A DNA stretch of 64,000 bases. Source: a phage. Positions 1,842 through 34,949 of the stretch are shown in pieces. The first letter of the stretch is position 1; the number at the start of each line of letters is the position of its first letter. The stretch is from the sequence record PZ445440.1. One strand, written 5' to 3'. A program made the translations under genes and the position numbers. The notes beneath the pieces were generated by a model, which searched no databases, had not been told where the DNA came from, and was given only the letters and a program-made list of their open reading frames with translations.

Positions 1842-2150
1842 TTACATAAGAAGCAAACGTTCTACCGGAGTACCGTCAACCGAAATTACTTTATCAAGGC
1901 GGAAAGAACGCCACTGACCTAACTTGGTATCGAATGCTCGAACTGATTCACGAGGTTCAGAACGAACTTCTGTTGCCGGATTGTTATTTTCATATTTGAC
2001 TTCAAGTTCATCGCGCGAAGCAAACATAGTGCGTACCTCACCGTTAGCCTTTTCAAATACAACACAATGAACGCCTACAGACAGAATAGTTTTAATACGT
2101 TCACGAAGAACCATAGTTTCTTGTTCAGTTAAAATCATATTATTCACCAC
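1842..2150 (-). CDS. hypothetical protein (102 aa), 31.1-position
   Basis: ORF track; between 31 and cd; stop overlaps cd region. Confidence 0.5.
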   Translation of the reverse strand: MVNNMILTEQETMVLRERIKTILSVGVHCVVFEKANGEVRTMFASRDELEVKYENNNPATEVRSEPRESVRAFDTKLGQWRSFRLDKVISVDGTPVERLLLM

Positions 2151-2721
2151 AAAAGTTTCGGATTTGTTCCCAATTCAGAGAACGAAGATTATTACGAGAG
2201 TACTGAATTACTTCAATACCAGCTTGTTTAAGAATGTCTGTCCAATTTTCAGGAGACCGGTCATATAATTCTGCATATACAACCTTTTTAATGCCTGACT
2301 GTGTGATAGCTTTAGTGCAATCAGGACACGGAGAAAGCGTAGTATATAACGTAGCACCTTCAATAGAATTACCTTTACGAGCAGCAAACAAAATTGCATT
2401 CAATTCCGCATGGATTTCGTTATTAGCAGACCATGCACTATGAGCGGCCCGATGTTCTTTAGCCAAAACAAAATTATCTGCCCGTCCAAATGCTGTAGTG
2501 CCTTCTTTATGCCCAGCAACGATGACCGGGCTTGGTTTATTCTTCAACCAACCTTGTTCGGTAGCATGGTCACAACAGTTTGTACCACCTGAAGGAGACC
2601 CATTATAACCCGTAGAGATAATGCGCCCATCTTTTTCAATGACGGCACCAACTTTCCATGAACAACATTTTGATTCTTGAGAAATCAAATAAGCAATTTG
2701 AAGATATGTGCTAGCTTTCAT
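2140..2721 (-). CDS. cd: dCMP deaminase
   Basis: 193 aa; zinc-deaminase motifs HAELNA...PCxxC (CDA fold); length equals T4 Cd. Confidence 0.9.
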   Translation of the reverse strand: MKASTYLQIAYLISQESKCCSWKVGAVIEKDGRIISTGYNGSPSGGTNCCDHATEQGWLKNKPSPVIVAGHKEGTTAFGRADNFVLAKEHRAAHSAWSANNEIHAELNAILFAARKGNSIEGATLYTTLSPCPDCTKAITQSGIKKVVYAELYDRSPENWTDILKQAGIEVIQYSRNNLRSLNWEQIRNFCGE

Positions 2722-3713
2722 TATTGAACCTTATTAATATAAGTTAACAGCTCTTTAGTTTGTTCCCAACTGATGCACGCATCGGTAACGGAAACGCCAT
2801 AGGACATATTATCAGAAATTTTTTGATTTCCTTCATGTAGGAATGATTCTATCATAATTCCTTTGACCAAATCATTAGCTGCTAAATTTTTACCAATACC
2901 AATTTGATTGCTATAATGCCCATCAGCGTTTGCATGGCTACAGTCAACCATTACATAATGATTCAGACCTACTGCCCTTGCTTTGTTAGAAGCTTCTTGA
3001 ATATCAGAAGAATGATAGTTCGGGCCGTTGGTCCCGCCACGCAATACGATATGCGTATTCTGATTACCTTCAGCTTCAACAATGCCTACAGTACCATCGA
3101 CGTCCATACCCATATACCGATGAGGCCAGGCGGCACTATACATCGCGTCTGTAGCTACTTTAATAGAACCATTAGTTGCGTTCTTGAAGCCTACGCACAT
3201 CGGTAGACCTGAAGCAATTTCACGATGTGTCTGACTTTCAGTCGTACGGGCGCCAATAGCAACCCATGAGAAAATACCAGAAAGATACTTAATCGTGAAT
3301 GGGTCTAATACTTCAGTTGCTAATGGAAGTCCCATACGTAGAAGTTTACGACACAATGTTCGTGCAACTATAAGTCCGTGGTTCATATCAAAACTTCCGT
3401 CAAGATATGGATCATTTACAAGACCTTTCCAACCTACGGTAGTTCGAGGCTTTTCAAAATAAACGCGCATCACTAACAGAACATTAGGAAGACGAGTTTG
3501 AAGTTCAGCCAGACGTTTGCCGTATTCAACAGCAGCAATAGGGTCATGAATTGAACAAGGACCTACAACAATAAGTTTGCGTGGGTCTTCACCGTTCATA
3601 ATCGAATTAACTTGTTCGCGATGAGAAGCCACTTGTGAGGCGTAAGCTTCCGACAAAGGAATAATCTCGGCCAGTTCTTTTGGAGAAATAAGTTTTCCGA
3701 CGACAGGTAACAT
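2721..3713 (-). CDS. 3-deoxy-D-arabino-heptulosonate-7-phosphate (DAHP) synthase, class I (AroG/AroF-like)
   Basis: 330 aa; long colinear blocks shared with recalled E. coli AroG (VVGPCSIHDP, VMRVYFEKPRTTVGWKGL, GARTTESQ.HRE.ASGL, GFKN, ILRGG, SHAN, ESHL.EGNQ, TDAC); TAAGGA RBS. Confidence 0.85.
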   Translation of the reverse strand: MLPVVGKLISPKELAEIIPLSEAYASQVASHREQVNSIMNGEDPRKLIVVGPCSIHDPIAAVEYGKRLAELQTRLPNVLLVMRVYFEKPRTTVGWKGLVNDPYLDGSFDMNHGLIVARTLCRKLLRMGLPLATEVLDPFTIKYLSGIFSWVAIGARTTESQTHREIASGLPMCVGFKNATNGSIKVATDAMYSAAWPHRYMGMDVDGTVGIVEAEGNQNTHIVLRGGTNGPNYHSSDIQEASNKARAVGLNHYVMVDCSHANADGHYSNQIGIGKNLAANDLVKGIMIESFLHEGNQKISDNMSYGVSVTDACISWEQTKELLTYINKVQ

Positions 3714-3833
3714 AACAATCCTTAGGAGATATAAACAGATTCTGATTCAACAATACCTTTAACCGGATTAGACAGGCTAAGTTGGTAGTGCTCAGATTTA
3801 TGACCATTCTCGATAGTAATGAGATAGCTCTCA

Positions 3834-4070
3834 TTATAGTGTTCCATATACTCGAGTTGCTTCAACAAGACCATCACTGCCTAATTTAAGATTAGTAATT
3901 TGGTCACCATCTTTAGGATTAACGATTATGAGAAAAGAACGTGGAGATTCTTGAATAACTCGTAATGTTGCATCTTGGAAACGTTCAGACACTTTATTGA
4001 TGAGTGCTTGAGCAAATTCTTTTACTTTAATCTGAAATTCGTGTACTGTAATTGGGTTTTCACTTAGCAT
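3834..4070 (-). CDS. hypothetical protein (78 aa)
   Basis: ORF track; preceded by early promoter. Confidence 0.5.
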   Translation of the reverse strand: MLSENPITVHEFQIKVKEFAQALINKVSERFQDATLRVIQESPRSFLIIVNPKDGDQITNLKLGSDGLVEATRVYGTL

Positions 4071-4098: not shown

Positions 4099-4128
4099 AT
4101 AGTATCACAACTCTACGGTGTTGTAAAC
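4099..4128 (-). promoter_or_regulatory. T4-type early promoter (GTTTACA-N17-TACTAT)
   Basis: Read on minus strand: GTTTACA, 17-nt spacer, TACTAT; -10 lies in loop of inverted repeat GTAGAGTT/AACTCTAC. Confidence 0.55.
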
Positions 4129-13971: not shown

Positions 13972-14555
13972 TTATATACGCTCTCAGTAATTTCGGTGAG
14001 TTCATCGATTCTGTAGTAATGAGATTCTACCATAGAACGTTGAAGCATAATATCCTGGACGAAATCTTTATCAAGTTGAACATCTGAATTAACACGACAT
14101 TTCTTAATGATTTTAGTCATCACAATTTCATCAGCATAAGGCAATGCTTGTTTAAGTAGAGCAGGACCGCCGATAACAGATACATCAACATGTTCAGTAG
14201 AAAGTTTAAACGGTACGTCGGTTGAAGGGCTAAACAAGTTAATTTCACCACCAGTCACCAAGGTAATAAATTCAGATTGGGTGATATAGAACCGTGCAAG
14301 TTCGTTGGTTTTAGTCCTAGGCAGTTTTCTGGCCATATCAGTGACAACCACATGAGTACGATCTGGGAGTAGACGAGGTAATGATGCAAATGTATTAGCA
14401 CCCATAACCATTACAGTGTTTTTAGTGCGAGCAACAAAGTTACTCATATCTTGTTTGATATGCTTCCATGGAAGTCCATCACCTAATCCAAAAGCATATT
14501 CCAGTTTATCATCAACTGTTTTAGATGGTGCGCATGCGAATACTAATTTAAGCAT
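13968..14555 (-). CDS. frd: dihydrofolate reductase
   Basis: Track ORF 13968..14639 trimmed to internal Met (MLKLVFAC...) giving 195 aa, as in T4 Frd (193 aa); DHFR motifs GLGDGLPW. Confidence 0.8.
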   Translation of the reverse strand: MLKLVFACAPSKTVDDKLEYAFGLGDGLPWKHIKQDMSNFVARTKNTVMVMGANTFASLPRLLPDRTHVVVTDMARKLPRTKTNELARFYITQSEFITLVTGGEINLFSPSTDVPFKLSTEHVDVSVIGGPALLKQALPYADEIVMTKIIKKCRVNSDVQLDKDFVQDIMLQRSMVESHYYRIDELTEITESVYK

Positions 14556-14796
14556 TTTTAAGTCCTTTAATAACTTTTTGGATTTGTGATTTAGAAGAAA
14601 CCAAATCAGTCTGGATTTGACAACCATCGGTTGGGTCAAATATTATAACACAAACGCGAGGTTTTGTTGTGTATCGCCCGGACAAATCAAATGCGTCACC
14701 AATGAATTCGGCCAAATCCGGATGGTCTAAATTAACTGAAGTATAAACTTCATATCCGACATCAGCGCCTTGAGAGTATTCAACAACAACATTCAT
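14548..14796 (-). CDS. hypothetical protein (82 aa)
   Basis: ORF track; stop overlaps frd start. Confidence 0.45.
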   Translation of the reverse strand: MNVVVEYSQGADVGYEVYTSVNLDHPDLAEFIGDAFDLSGRYTTKPRVCVIIFDPTDGCQIQTDLVSSKSQIQKVIKGLKNA

Positions 14797-33633: not shown

Positions 33634-33637
33634 ATTT

Positions 33638-33778
33638 TCACCATATTAATGAACGAATAACCATTATAACATCTGAAATGAAAAGCACTACTTGGATTAG
33701 TCCAAACATCACACCATAATACAGAACCGTAAGCAACAACAAGAGCCCGAAGGCTCCTGCTAAGATTTTCTTAATCAT
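33638..33778 (-). CDS. small hydrophobic protein (about 46 aa), not in track
   Basis: Hand translation MIKKILAGAFGLLLLLTVLYYGV...; occupies the ac/stp position between 52 and ndd. Confidence 0.3.
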   Translation of the reverse strand: MIKKILAGAFGLLLLLTVLYYGVMFGLIQVVLFISDVIMVIRSLIW

Positions 33779-33924
33779 TACTCGCCTTTTAACACGTTAA
33801 GAAGAGCTAAGACCGCTAAGGTGCCTTGTGATACGGCCTGTTGAAATACTGTTGTTTCGCCTGTAACTAAAGTATTAACGAATAAAAACGACCAACACAA
33901 CAATGCAATAATCCATGTTACCAT
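33778..33924 (-). CDS. small hydrophobic protein (about 48 aa), not in track
   Basis: Hand translation MVTWIIALLCWSFLFVNTLVTG...; membrane-like; position of T4 ac. Confidence 0.3.
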   Translation of the reverse strand: MVTWIIALLCWSFLFVNTLVTGETTVFQQAVSQGTLAVLALLNVLKGE

Positions 33925-33975
33925 TTTATTACCTCAAAAATAAATTAAAGGGCCAACTTAATATGCCTGTATAAA

Positions 33976-34422
33976 TTAGTAACTCTGCAGAATGAATTTG
34001 AAATTATCTGCCAGAAGACGGTTCATTTCAGTGAGTGTTTGATATTCTGATGTATGATTGCGAGTGAATGCCAGAGCCAATTGTCCTTTACCATAACCAG
34101 TAGTCAGTGGTTTCATGTTCTTAGCTGCAACAAAAATTACATCATATTCAATATTGTTAGTGCCCATGGTGCGGGCTAGTTGCGAACGGCCTTGACGAAT
34201 GTGAGAAAGAATTGCATCCAACCCTTGTTTAGAACGTTGACGTCCTACAAAAAATCGTGCTGCTACTTGTCGCCAATCAGATGAACCTTTAACAAAGAAG
34301 TAAAAACCTTCACGAGAACGAAACTCTTTAGAAACTTCGGAACCGTATTCGCCATTACGAACTACTGCAACAACTTCACCGCCAACTGCCAGAAGGTCTT
34401 TACGAGTTAAATATTTGGACAT
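33976..34422 (-). CDS. ndd: nucleoid disruption protein Ndd
   Basis: 148 aa; clear match to recalled T4 Ndd ([70 protein letters not shown]). Confidence 0.85.
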
Positions 34423-34466
34423 GCTAATTTCCTCAATTGATTAATGTTTTTGTAATCCATGAGAGC

Positions 34467-34496
34467 ATTATACCCTGCTCTCAAGAGTTTGTACAA
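34467..34496 (-). promoter_or_regulatory. T4-type early promoter upstream of ndd
   Basis: Minus strand TTGTACA-N17-TATAAT; -10 in loop of inverted repeat GAGAGC/GCTCTC; about 40-nt near-duplicate of promoter at 6223. Confidence 0.5.
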
Positions 34497-34498
34497 TT

Positions 34499-34699
34499 TT
34501 ATTCGGCCATATCAGAACGTTCAAAAAGCTCTTCAACAGTTAAACATTCGGTGTCATCTTCAATAAAGAATCGAGTCCAACACGTTGGGGCAATACAGTT
34601 ATGAGTTTGTCCGGCGATAGAAGCTACACGAATAAGCTGCTGACCATTATTCAGAACAAATTTTTCACCAATTTCAACGTCTTTAAAAAGCTTAGCCAT
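34499..34699 (-). CDS. hypothetical protein (66 aa)
   Basis: ORF track. Confidence 0.45.
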   Translation of the reverse strand: MAKLFKDVEIGEKFVLNNGQQLIRVASIAGQTHNCIAPTCWTRFFIEDDTECLTVEELFERSDMAE

Positions 34700-34949
34700 T
34701 TTGTGTTCCTCATGTTTCAGTAGGACTACTATACCATAATCCTACCGTGATGTAAACAATTAAATTACATTAAAATATGTTAAAGCCAACCATGTTCCAG
34801 TGAACGAACATGCAATGTAAAAACCCGTATCGCAAATTGTTCTTAGTACAATAAGAAGTGCATTTTTCATAAGTACCTCAATACAATTGAAAATATTATA
34901 CAAATCATAGGGATACTAAGCAACCATATTCCGATCCACATTTTAGAGC

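Follow-up and report, generated by a model that had tools for sequence, protein, structure and literature searches.

The locus and its gene order

The window analysed here, meaning the whole 64,000-nt stretch of sequence record PZ445440.1, belongs to a Mosigvirus of the RB69 group of T4-like coliphages. On its minus strand, a gene for DAHP synthase (DAHPS) lies between a cd.2 homologue and the dCMP deaminase gene cd, with the following features:

2140–2721, minus strand: dCMP deaminase (cd), based on Pfam PF00383 (2.4e-26) and the annotation of an identical record
2721–3713, minus strand: DAHPS coding sequence, 330 aa, class I-alpha, with its ATG at 3713 and a TAA stop at 2723–2721, based on the list of open reading frames (ORFs), Pfam, NCBIfam and PDB matches, catalytic residues and an AF2 model
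3719–3723, minus strand: Shine-Dalgarno-like AAGGA, 5 nt 5' of the DAHPS ATG, read from the sequence as a putative ribosome-binding site
3722–3847, minus strand: 41-aa ORF between cd.2 and DAHPS, annotated as hypothetical protein bas46_0049
3834–4070, minus strand: cd.2 homologue (DUF7320), the upstream neighbor in the same direction, based on Pfam PF24005 (1.5e-35) and 65% identity to T4 Cd.2
4099–4127, minus strand: candidate T4-type early promoter between cd.3 and cd.2 (TTTACA, 17 nt, TG-extended TACTAT), scan score 9/12

DAHPS is directly upstream of cd, and its stop codon overlaps the cd ATG by one base (TAATG), an arrangement that suggests co-transcription and translational coupling of the two genes. 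The slot that it fills between cd.2 and cd is held by cd.1 in T4, which agrees with the initial annotation of this DNA, where the gene was placed next to dCMP deaminase at a site of small cd.x ORFs in T4. Surrounding DAHPS is a block of nucleotide-metabolism genes (cd, pseT, nrdA/B, td and frd). No second aromatic-pathway gene was found in the RB69 annotation or within the 64-kb window, leaving the first shikimate step as the only one that is phage-encoded. The 41-aa ORF has a weak blastp match to the C-terminal part of Cd.2 from the Kanagawavirus PEi20 (47% identity over 38 aa, E = 6e-4) and, judging from this resemblance, may be a relic of the 3' end of an imported or duplicated cd.2.

The candidate promoter site is conserved in RB69 and matches the position of the mapped early promoter Pe133295 in the T4 record. 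The promoter evidence is nonetheless weak, because the promoter and terminator scan as a whole returned no more sites than chance expects. DAHPS is probably transcribed early, as one unit with cd.2 and dCMP deaminase.

Family, fold and active site

The 330-aa product aligned over its full length with DAHP synthases of class I-alpha, scoring 252 bits against Pfam PF00793 (cut-off of 25.5, E = 5e-75), 427.7 bits against the aroFGH equivalog model NCBIfam TIGR00034 (cut-off of 173.2) and 455.1 against NCBIfam NF009395 (cut-off of 343). Together with a PDB match to AroF (6agm, E = 5e-105), these concordant results confirm the DAHP synthase identity that had been proposed for 2721–3713. The accompanying label, 'AroG-like', was slightly off: the closest isozyme is AroF (51% identity, compared to 47% for AroG and 44% for AroH), the score against the AroG-specific model falls below its cut-off (NF006723, 363 versus 568) and, at the equivalent of AroG position 211, the phage protein carries Gly, like AroF. 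The AroH-specific model was not reached either (NF009396, 386 versus 463).

The AF2 model (pLDDT 92.8) matched solved DAHPS structures, namely NmeDAH7PS and AroG, with a TM score of 0.96 and an r.m.s.d. of 1.3–1.4 Å. The model contains the (β/α)8 barrel with the type I-alpha additions, including predicted strands of the β6a/β6b hairpin at residues 198–203 and 209–214, and retains the N-terminal extension, shortened by 8–9 residues.

All four metal ligands are present (Cys53, His260, Glu289 and Asp311, corresponding to AroG Cys61, His268, Glu302 and Asp326), as are the residues that contact PEP and E4P (Arg83, Lys88, Arg90, Thr91, Arg156, Lys177 and Arg225, corresponding to AroG Arg92, Lys97, Arg99, Thr100, Arg165, Lys186 and Arg234). 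The KPRT motif is intact, Pro89 included. Substitution of metal- or PEP-binding residues had been named at the outset as the observation that would speak against an enzyme; the alignment revealed none, with 11 of 11 catalytic positions present in this protein, invariant in 31/31 phage-type sequences and conserved in essentially all of 98 bacterial sequences. The ORF is a real and intact class I-alpha DAHP synthase, whose catalytic activity is predicted from sequence and model.

The gene itself was already known. An identical gene (100%) is annotated in phage ChristianSchoenbein, GenBank carries the gene under several DAHPS names, with a DAHPS or aroF label on many of ~140 records, and a published study has described a homologue as an auxiliary metabolic gene (AMG). 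Beyond that AMG mention (PMC11845039), our search for experimental literature on phage DAHPS returned nothing.

An old phage lineage at a conserved position

Phage DAHPS copies form one clade (bootstrap 100/100) and occupy the same position between cd.2 and cd in six strabovirus genera (Mosigvirus, Kanagawavirus, Marfavirus, Winklervirus, Bragavirus and Kagamiyamavirus), which answers the survey of related T-even genomes that the initial annotation had proposed. In ~140 complete Mosigvirus genomes, the gene is flanked by cd.2 and cd. Identity among phage genera is 55–77%, the reading frame is intact across the 31 phage-type sequences, and the divergence of DAHPS between genera parallels that of cd, pseT and gene 31.

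Recent capture from a host was rejected based on this monophyly and on three further observations: the closest bacterial proteins, which belong to varied phyla, reach only ~55% identity, identity to AroF is 51%, and GC3 is 0.30, like that of the neighboring genes, compared to 0.51–0.57 for E. coli aroF and aroG. Selection was estimated from a Kanagawavirus pair, yielding a dN/dS of 0.145 at a dS of 0.71, because Mosigvirus alleles were uninformative: they differ at no more than 12 sites, and their dN/dS ratios of 0.2 to 1.2 reflect too few substitutions to show selection. With regard to the usual description of an AMG, this is a host-type enzyme encoded among phage genes in genuine phage genomes, not a product of misassembly, and it is kept by selection.

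Presence and absence within Mosigvirus

RB69 lacks the gene. Using exact string comparison, we mapped the RB69 junction to the following features of the window:

2724–3836, minus strand: 1,113-bp segment (41-aa ORF and DAHPS) present here and absent in RB69, from junction analysis
3819–3836, minus strand: left copy of an imperfect direct repeat, TAATGAGAGCTATCTCAT, at the cd.2 stop codon, from junction comparison
2706–2723, minus strand: right copy of the imperfect direct repeat, TAATGAAAGCTAGCACAT, at the DAHPS stop and cd start, from junction comparison

The RB69 sequence passes from left-flank to right-flank identity inside the direct repeat. A tblastn search found no DAHPS anywhere in the RB69 genome (best E = 1.7, compared to 3e-115 for the control). 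The empty junction occurs in ~11 records (roughly six phages), compared to ~140 records with the gene; isolates without it include RB69, moha, JK36 and JK42, and WG01/QL01-type phages share the empty junction. Relative to RB69, no other gene within the 64-kb window was gained or lost together with DAHPS.

The conserved position in six genera favors loss in RB69-type isolates as the origin of this indel, while the 41-aa relic, resembling the C terminus of a foreign Cd.2, and the shared empty junctions indicate that the segment may have been imported by recombination. DAHPS is dispensable, as its absence from RB69 and about five further Mosigvirus isolates shows, and any benefit must therefore be conditional. 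The gene would be an accessory one, useful to the phage in some growth conditions and dispensable in others, and the natural pairs with and without it (RB69, moha, JK36 and JK42 compared to ~140 carriers) allow its effect on fitness to be tested directly.

A rebuilt inhibitor site

The phage N terminus had been described as about 20 residues shorter than that of AroG, but the actual deficit is 8–9 residues, with phage residue 5 corresponding to AroG residue 13 and phage residue 8 to AroF residue 17. Internal deletions of 5 and 3–4 residues and a shorter C terminus make up the remaining part of the 20–26-residue difference in length. The segment equivalent to AroG Asp6/Asp7 (AroF Asn8) is missing in 31/31 phage sequences.

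Comparing the 31 phage-type with the 98 bacterial sequences, we found only six columns in the whole protein that are fixed differently in the two groups, and every one is at or adjoining the inhibitor site. In AroG numbering, these are 150 (Pro to Ile, 30/31 phage sequences), 151 (Gln to Lys, 30/31), 155 (Asp to Gly, 30/31), 180 (Ser to Pro, 31/31), 209 (Phe to Tyr, 31/31) and 223 (Thr to Ala, 31/31). Bacterial sequences have Gln151 in 98/98 and Ser180 in 97/98. In AroG, Q151 and S180 touch the main chain of the bound inhibitor, D155 stabilizes the site, and P150L, S180F and F209A/S are feedback-resistant (PMC9529685). The pocket is ~8.5 Å away from the active site and is built of barrel loops and the β6a/β6b hairpin (PMC9529685). 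Based on pocket residues and the N-terminal segment, with residue roles assigned from PMC9529685 and PMC10729320, an aromatic amino-acid inhibitor site in the sense of AroF, AroG or AroH is not intact in the phage clade.

With the pocket rebuilt in every phage copy, the enzyme is probably feedback-insensitive and would escape the usual shut-off by the host. The initial annotation had suggested deregulation from the N-terminal truncation; the suggestion gains support mainly from the pocket substitutions (Gln151 to Lys, Ser180 to Pro, Pro150 to Ile and Phe209 to Tyr) and less from the truncation. The prediction from these substitutions is indirect, as no phage replacement residue is identical to any tested resistant mutant.

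Within the phage clade, the pocket varies less than the rest of the protein, with an entropy of 0.29 versus 1.16 (p = 3e-4) and 11/19 invariant positions versus 83/294 elsewhere (Fisher p = 0.009). Conservation this strong is at least as compatible with a pocket in continued use as with a disabled one. The Lys at 151 could also retain carboxylate binding.

Judged by these alignments, phage DAHPS is an old subfamily resident in T4-like phages, its pocket rebuilt and then held fixed, under purifying selection. What appears to be undescribed is this old, distinct lineage, whose sole systematic differences from the bacterial enzymes are at the inhibitor site.

Proposed role and alternatives

The reading that we favor, with moderate confidence, is that the gene encodes a feedback-insensitive DAHPS, expressed early, that sustains carbon entry into the shikimate pathway during infection. 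Phage shut-off of host transcription would leave the host unable to derepress aroF, aroG and aroH, and pre-existing host enzymes would stay inhibitable by Phe, Tyr and Trp. Insensitivity to all three is predicted for the phage enzyme, so that carbon flow through the flux-controlling first shikimate step would persist. From DAHP, the rest of the host pathway would make chorismate and then aromatic amino acids, with folate and quinone precursors as possible further products, all of use in phage production. In the searchable literature, including two Mosigvirus genome papers, we found no enzyme assay, complementation or infection phenotype for any phage DAHPS.

The conservation of the pocket, which extends over six or more genera, raises an unlikely but credible alternative, in which the site was re-targeted rather than disabled and the enzyme is regulated by another small molecule, such as prephenate or chorismate, which lack the α-amino group, or an infection-specific metabolite. 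An abandoned pocket would be expected to drift, and the low entropy, the excess of invariant positions and the identical replacements in all genera (Lys 30/31, Pro 31/31, Tyr 31/31, Gly 30/31 and Ala 31/31) all point the other way; Lys151 could also pair with an anionic group, and the acidic N-terminal residues that hold the amino group of the inhibitor are gone. Against this, the pocket is near the active site and made of barrel loops and the hairpin (PMC9529685), so that its conservation could be due to structural constraint alone. Rather unlikely, too, is the specific proposal that AroG positions 151, 180, 150, 155, 209 and 223 now form a conserved allosteric pocket that is new and responds to another ligand. 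If true, the phage would adjust shikimate entry, or the drainage of E4P and PEP, to its own metabolic state, and the enzyme would represent a virus-specific regulatory class of DAHP synthase.

Drainage itself could also be the purpose of an unregulated enzyme, whose properties suit a sink as well as a supply. Consumption of E4P, with PEP, would shift the transketolase and transaldolase equilibria to pentose phosphates, raising ribose-5-phosphate for nucleotides and pentose for DNA modification, by analogy with the pentose-phosphate auxiliary genes of cyanophages. The location of the gene within a nucleotide-metabolism block, its one-base overlap with cd and the fact that only the first shikimate step is phage-encoded are all consistent with such a role. 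We nonetheless regard it as quite improbable: the argument is purely inferential, a lone first step could equally reflect the control of flux by DAHPS (PMC10729320), and the distribution of the gene does not follow the phage arabinose module.

A link to DNA-sugar synthesis, for instance with arabinose-5-phosphate or a different aldose phosphate as substrate in place of E4P, is highly improbable. It might be suspected because DNA of the RB69 group carries arabinosyl-hmC and the group encodes an arabinose-5-phosphate isomerase homologue (PMC6024577), and because PF00793 contains both DAHPS and KDO8P synthase, which uses arabinose-5-phosphate. The phage protein, however, scores above the cut-off of the aroFGH equivalog model, and its Lys-Pro-Arg-Thr motif, which binds the phosphate of E4P, is intact. 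We rejected the link on two further grounds. RB69, in which arabinosyl-hmC was demonstrated (PMC6024577), makes it without a DAHPS gene, so the enzyme is not needed for the modification. The isomerase was found in 57 Acinetobacter and at most ~3 Klebsiella phage records, compared to 4 and 25, respectively, for DAHPS. Neither this RB69 result nor the window, where no gene co-varies with DAHPS relative to RB69, supports the earlier proposal of a possible role in an unrelated phage pathway.

That the gene is a functionless passenger, either a decaying remnant or a neutral hitch-hiker from a host, would suit its natural dispensability in RB69 and about five other Mosigvirus isolates and the scarcity of substitutions within Mosigvirus, but is scarcely credible and is contradicted by the conservation data, namely an intact frame and invariant catalytic residues in 31/31 phage-type sequences from genera diverged to 55–77% identity, a dN/dS of 0.145, a conserved position in six genera, fully phage-adjusted composition and the absence of a close bacterial relative.

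Comparison with known systems

Among characterized enzymes, the Tyr-sensitive AroF of E. coli (6agm and 6agl) is the nearest in sequence, with 51% full-length identity, the same fold, identical metal, PEP and E4P residues, the Gly at the AroG-211 equivalent and a Pro at the equivalent of AroF Pro148. Compared to AroF, the phage protein is missing residues 1–9, Asn8 among them, carries two internal deletions, of 5 and 4 residues, ends in a shorter C terminus, and differs in the pocket by Pro151 to Ile, Gln152 to Lys, Asp156 to Gly, Ser181 to Pro, Phe210 to Tyr and, at the equivalent of AroG Thr223, a change to Ala. Because pocket and N terminus differ from AroF in this way, the 'Tyr-sensitive' label on some phage records in GenBank is probably wrong, and the prediction of insensitivity, if it holds, would correct 'Tyr-sensitive AroF' labels that are spreading in phage annotations.

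The best structural matches are the Phe-sensitive AroG and the DAH7PS of Neisseria meningitidis (1kfl, 1qr7, 4hso and others), which have the same TIM barrel and β6a/β6b regulatory hairpin. The phage protein is set apart from AroG by an identity of 47%, a score of 363 compared to the cut-off of 568, and the missing Asp6/Asp7-equivalent segment.

Feedback-resistant DAHPS has been engineered by the AroG changes P150L, S180F, D146N and F209A and by removal of Ile11 from AroF (PMC9529685 and PMC10729320). The phage clade is naturally changed at 150, 180 and 209, as well as at 151 and 155 of the same site, and likewise has a truncated N terminus. In place of Leu, Phe and Ala, it has Ile, Pro, Tyr, Lys and Gly, with several changes combined in one protein and fixed in evolution, and its resistance is a prediction. 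If the prediction holds, the phage enzyme would offer a naturally optimized feedback-resistant scaffold for making aromatic compounds.

A DAHP synthase of Klebsiella phage KLB31, a Kanagawavirus, was reported as an AMG in 2025, the same reading of the gene as ours (PMC11845039); we made the comparison through the Kanagawavirus members PEi20 and Entb_45, which carry the clade at the same locus. That paper identified the gene with an AMG-screening pipeline and offers a pathway-level hypothesis (PMC11845039), to which the present analysis adds residues, regulatory site, synteny and polymorphism.

Should feedback insensitivity hold, phage DAHPS would be an enterobacterial-phage case of a virus seizing the control point of a pathway by removing allosteric control, not merely by adding an enzyme. 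Cyanophage psbA and talC are the familiar precedent, in which phages bring their own version of a host enzyme that controls flux, and so sustain or redirect metabolism once host expression stops. The T4-like phages differ from these in pathway and in hosts, and in that allosteric control would here have been lost or rebuilt, rather than a fast-turnover protein replaced.

Gene, protein family and active site

The following features, all on the minus strand, are referred to below.
2140-2721, minus strand: dCMP deaminase (cd), assigned by a domain match and downstream of the DAHP synthase (DAHPS) gene
2721-3713, minus strand: DAHPS ORF, ATG to TAA, 330 aa
3722-3847, minus strand: 41-aa ORF between cd.2 and DAHPS, hypothetical in an identical GenBank record
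4127-4099, minus strand: promoter-like site (TTTACA, 17 nt, TG-extended TACTAT) between cd.3 and cd.2

The ORF reported in the initial annotation was borne out as an ATG-to-TAA frame of 330 aa at 2721-3713, with AAGGA located 5 nt 5' of the ATG and a TAATG common to DAHPS and cd, in which the final base of the DAHPS stop is the first of the cd start. The product matches Pfam DAHP_synth_1 (5e-75), exceeds the cut-offs of the NCBIfam aroFGH equivalog TIGR00034 (427.7 bits; cut-off, 173.2) and subfamily NF009395 (455 bits; cut-off, 343), and does not reach the isozyme-specific models (AroG, 363 versus 568; AroH, 386 versus 463). Its earlier description as AroG-like needs amending, since identity to the E. 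coli MG1655 proteins is higher for AroF (51%) than for AroG (47%) or AroH (44%). The closest solved structure is E. coli AroF (6agm, 5e-105), with an alignment covering residues 8 to 327. An AlphaFold model based on an input alignment of 43 sequences (mean pLDDT 92.8, pTM 0.91) superimposed on type I-alpha DAHP synthase crystal structures from Neisseria and E. coli with a TM of 0.96 and an rmsd of 1.3-1.4 Å. The N-terminus, previously put at ~20 residues shorter than that of AroG, is 8-9 residues shorter in the alignment, with the remaining length deficit due to internal deletions (5 and 3-4 residues) and a shorter C-terminus; save for this detail, the original observation was confirmed and its interpretation supported.

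Residues were mapped onto AroG numbering using 31 phage-type and 98 bacterial sequences drawn from a large protein search. All of the metal ligands (AroG Cys61, His268, Glu302 and Asp326; phage Cys53, His260, Glu289 and Asp311) and PEP/E4P residues (AroG Arg92, Lys97, Pro98, Arg99, Thr100, Arg165, Lys186 and Arg234; phage Arg83, Lys88, Pro89, Arg90, Thr91, Arg156, Lys177 and Arg225) are retained. Because these positions are invariant across 31/31 phage-type sequences, the catalytic substitutions that had been named as evidence against the assignment do not occur, and the gene encodes an intact class I-alpha DAHP synthase.

Substitutions at the inhibitor site

We looked for alignment columns in which the phage clade and the bacteria were each at least 90% conserved but for different residues. 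Only 6 of the 330 positions passed, all of them at or adjacent to the site through which aromatic amino acids inhibit AroF and AroG.

Fixed differences between phage-type and bacterial DAHP synthases (AroG numbering)
150: Pro to Ile
151: Gln to Lys (phage 30/31; bacteria Gln 98/98)
155: Asp to Gly (phage 30/31; bacteria Asp 95/98)
180: Ser to Pro (phage 31/31; bacteria Ser 97/98)
209: Phe to Tyr (phage 31/31; bacteria Phe 97/98)
223: Thr to Ala (phage 31/31; bacteria Thr 98/98)

The inhibitor main chain is bound by AroG Gln151 and Ser180 (AroF Gln152 and Ser181), the Asp155 salt bridge stabilizes the inhibitor site, and feedback inhibition of AroG is abolished by P150L and S180F, with F209A and F209S also resistant (PMC9529685). 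In the AlphaFold model, the two strands that make up the beta6a/beta6b hairpin carry positions 209 and 223. The N-terminal segment containing AroG Asp6/Asp7 (AroF Asn8), residues whose roles are known from the structure of AroG with bound Phe and from the N8K mutant of AroF, is missing from 31/31 phage sequences; these have 8-12 residues ahead of the conserved Pro19 column, compared with at least 16 in bacteria, and the residual N-terminus is highly variable. Deletion of AroF Ile11 is a known path to feedback resistance (PMC10729320). Because of the pocket substitutions and the N-terminal loss, which are stronger evidence than that first offered, the suggestion that the enzyme is deregulated stands, and we infer that Phe, Tyr and Trp do not inhibit it. 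The 'Tyr-sensitive' label found in GenBank records is doubtful given the pocket substitutions, and is likely a mislabelling of the phage enzyme.

Within the phage clade, pocket residues vary less than the remainder of the protein (mean entropy 0.29 versus 1.16; Mann-Whitney p = 3e-4), and 11/19 are invariant compared with 83/294 elsewhere (Fisher p = 0.009), whereas a merely abandoned pocket should drift. Either structural constraint is responsible, the site being ~8.5 Å from the active site (PMC9529685), or the pocket still binds something. The latter is the basis of the main alternative to lost regulation, namely that the allosteric site was re-targeted, which we consider unlikely but worth keeping in view.

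Age and position of the phage lineage

The large protein search showed a break between proteins of 319-343 aa with 55-98% identity, which derived from phages or phage-sized contigs, and the bacterial enzymes from many phyla that followed (341-388 aa, 48-55% identical), and phage-type sequences formed a single clade in 100/100 neighbour-joining bootstrap replicates. The gene occupies a constant slot, after pseT and the cd.x ORFs and before cd, gene 31 and rIII, in six genera: Mosigvirus, Kanagawavirus (Entb_45, PEi20), Marfavirus (PWKp18), Winklervirus (X20), Bragavirus (phiP4-3) and Kagamiyamavirus (EcS1). DAHPS and cd are separated by a homologue of T4 cd.1 in X20, EcS1 and phiP4-3; the T4 order is cd.2-cd.1-cd, and the gene had thus been placed correctly at the small cd.x ORFs of T4.

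Between genera, DAHPS identity (76, 67, 68, 68 and 59%) changes roughly in parallel with that of cd, pseT and gp31, and its GC3 is 0.30 (cd, 0.26; pseT, 0.33) compared with 0.51 and 0.57 for E. coli aroF and aroG. Two Kanagawavirus alleles gave a dN/dS of 0.145 at dS 0.71; the Mosigvirus alleles, ~1% diverged, carry no usable dN/dS signal. Identity trend, GC3 and dN/dS together mark DAHPS as an old gene that selection has retained and that has descended alongside its neighbours, rather than one captured recently from a host. Its product belongs to a long-maintained phage lineage and is probably a regulatory form of class I-alpha DAHP synthase peculiar to phages.

Presence and absence in Mosigvirus

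In RB69, the type phage of Mosigvirus, the flanks match the window but DAHPS is missing and cd.2 abuts cd; a tblastn search of the whole RB69 genome found no DAHPS (best E = 1.7; Cd control, 3e-115). The two sequences differ here by exactly 1,113 bp (window 2724-3836). Because this is the sole stretch of at least 1 kb in the 64-kb window lacking an RB69 counterpart, DAHPS has no travelling partner gene within the window. An imperfect direct repeat borders the segment, with one copy (TAATGAGAGCTATCTCAT) at the cd.2 stop codon and the second (TAATGAAAGCTAGCACAT) at the DAHPS-stop/cd-start junction, and the switch from left-flank to right-flank identity at the RB69 junction falls within it.

The empty junction is seen in ~11 Mosigvirus records from roughly six phages (RB69, ECO111 5-P, mar005P1, JK42, JK36 and moha), and the gene in ~140. 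Records LR027383-LR027391 (vB_Eco_mar005P1) and OZ035759.1 (Mosigvirus mar005p1) share a species name and differ in the segment, suggesting an indel segregating among very close relatives. Conservation of gene position across genera favours deletion. The 41-aa ORF is weakly similar to the C-terminal part of Cd.2 from Kanagawavirus PEi20 (47% over 38 aa, E = 6e-4), a similarity that would be in keeping with import by recombination. This ORF may be what is left of a second cd.2 copy after an event that imported or rearranged the segment. Whichever the direction, DAHPS is dispensable in nature.

RB69 cd (2378-2887 in the RB69 sequence) is annotated as 510 bp encoding 169 aa, versus 193 aa for window Cd (2140-2721) and T4 Cd; window Cd aligns full-length to 585 bp of RB69 by tblastn (88.8% identity with gaps), and the annotation may be truncated by a frameshift, stop codon or sequencing error. 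At the T4/RB69 frd.1 position, an 82-aa ORF (14548-14796, minus strand) runs over the 3' end of the region of the dihydrofolate reductase gene (frd); tblastn at E <= 1e-5 gave no RB69 match for this ORF, which is therefore a divergent or replaced small gene. Downstream of the gene for the topoisomerase medium subunit, two intervals of 250-340 nt (33634-33975 and 34700-34949), without ORFs having RB69 counterparts, flank ndd/ndd.1-like ORFs (33976-34699) and may be variable intergenic or small-ORF regions.

Expression and proposed role

The promoter-like site at 4127-4099 is retained in RB69 and corresponds in position to the mapped early promoter Pe133295 noted in the T4 record, but is only a candidate because the whole scan yielded 16 sites versus 15.4 by chance. 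Together with the TAATG, it suggests early co-expression of cd.2, DAHPS and cd with the nucleotide-metabolism genes. The alc gene lies 2 kb from DAHPS. With host transcription blocked by the phage, the host could not derepress aroF, aroG and aroH, and its existing enzymes would remain feedback-controlled; an unregulated phage enzyme would maintain DAHP supply at the first rate-limiting step (PMC10729320). The remaining host enzymes would convert DAHP to chorismate and aromatic amino acids for phage protein synthesis, possibly with some chorismate used for folate. T-even phages need folate for thymidylate synthase and dCMP hydroxymethylase. That the enzyme acts instead as an E4P/PEP sink, pushing carbon to pentose phosphates for nucleotides, seems improbable, and that it is a functionless passenger can be given very little credence.

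A connection with DNA arabinosylation was examined because DAHPS is related to KDO8P synthase, and E4P and Ru5P are both pentose-phosphate-pathway intermediates. RB69 DNA bears arabinosyl-hmC, with arabinose-donor candidate genes including the arabinose-5-phosphate isomerase homologue ORF055c (PMC6024577, PMC8056088). Membership of DAHPS in such a sugar pathway is highly improbable and was rejected: RB69 makes the modification without DAHPS, and the distributions are discordant (isomerase, 57 Acinetobacter and at most ~3 Klebsiella phage records; DAHPS, 4 and 25). The two genes are independent.

Distribution and relation to earlier work

At the DNA level, the gene is a 100% match to bas46_0048 of Escherichia phage ChristianSchoenbein (Mosigvirus, RB69 group, Tevenvirinae), annotated 'putative aldolase'. 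It is present at at least 95% identity in ~140 phage records, often labelled phospho-2-dehydro-3-deoxyheptonate aldolase, aroF, AroG or DAHP synthetase, and tblastn detected homologues in 213. Several Mosigvirus records mislabel cd as 'ribD riboflavin biosynthesis protein' or 'tRNA-specific adenosine deaminase', and Shigella phage JK45, filed under Tequatrovirus, has a Mosigvirus-like DAHPS locus. Outside the strabovirus clade, homologues of 35-48% identity occur in other phage-labelled records (CAKLQH020000056.1 and CAKLQH020000043.1, Acinetobacter phage MD-2021a; OQ594355.1, Aeromonas phage HJ05; MT837410.1; MT838377.1), with two copies in one assembly; these may be independent acquisitions or wrongly binned bacterial contigs.

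Our literature search found no experimental work on any phage DAHPS, Mosigvirus genome papers included, and the gene goes unmentioned in the Mosigvirus genome papers checked. Of modest interest, and open to direct test, are the clade-wide rebuilding of the inhibitor site, the probable label error and the clean natural carrier/non-carrier pairs. The underlying finding is not unusual, and neither the gene nor its proposed status as an auxiliary metabolic gene is new, because it is annotated in records and a 2025 paper had already placed the DAHP synthase of a Klebsiella Kanagawavirus in that class and proposed that it raises aromatic amino-acid synthesis (PMC11845039).
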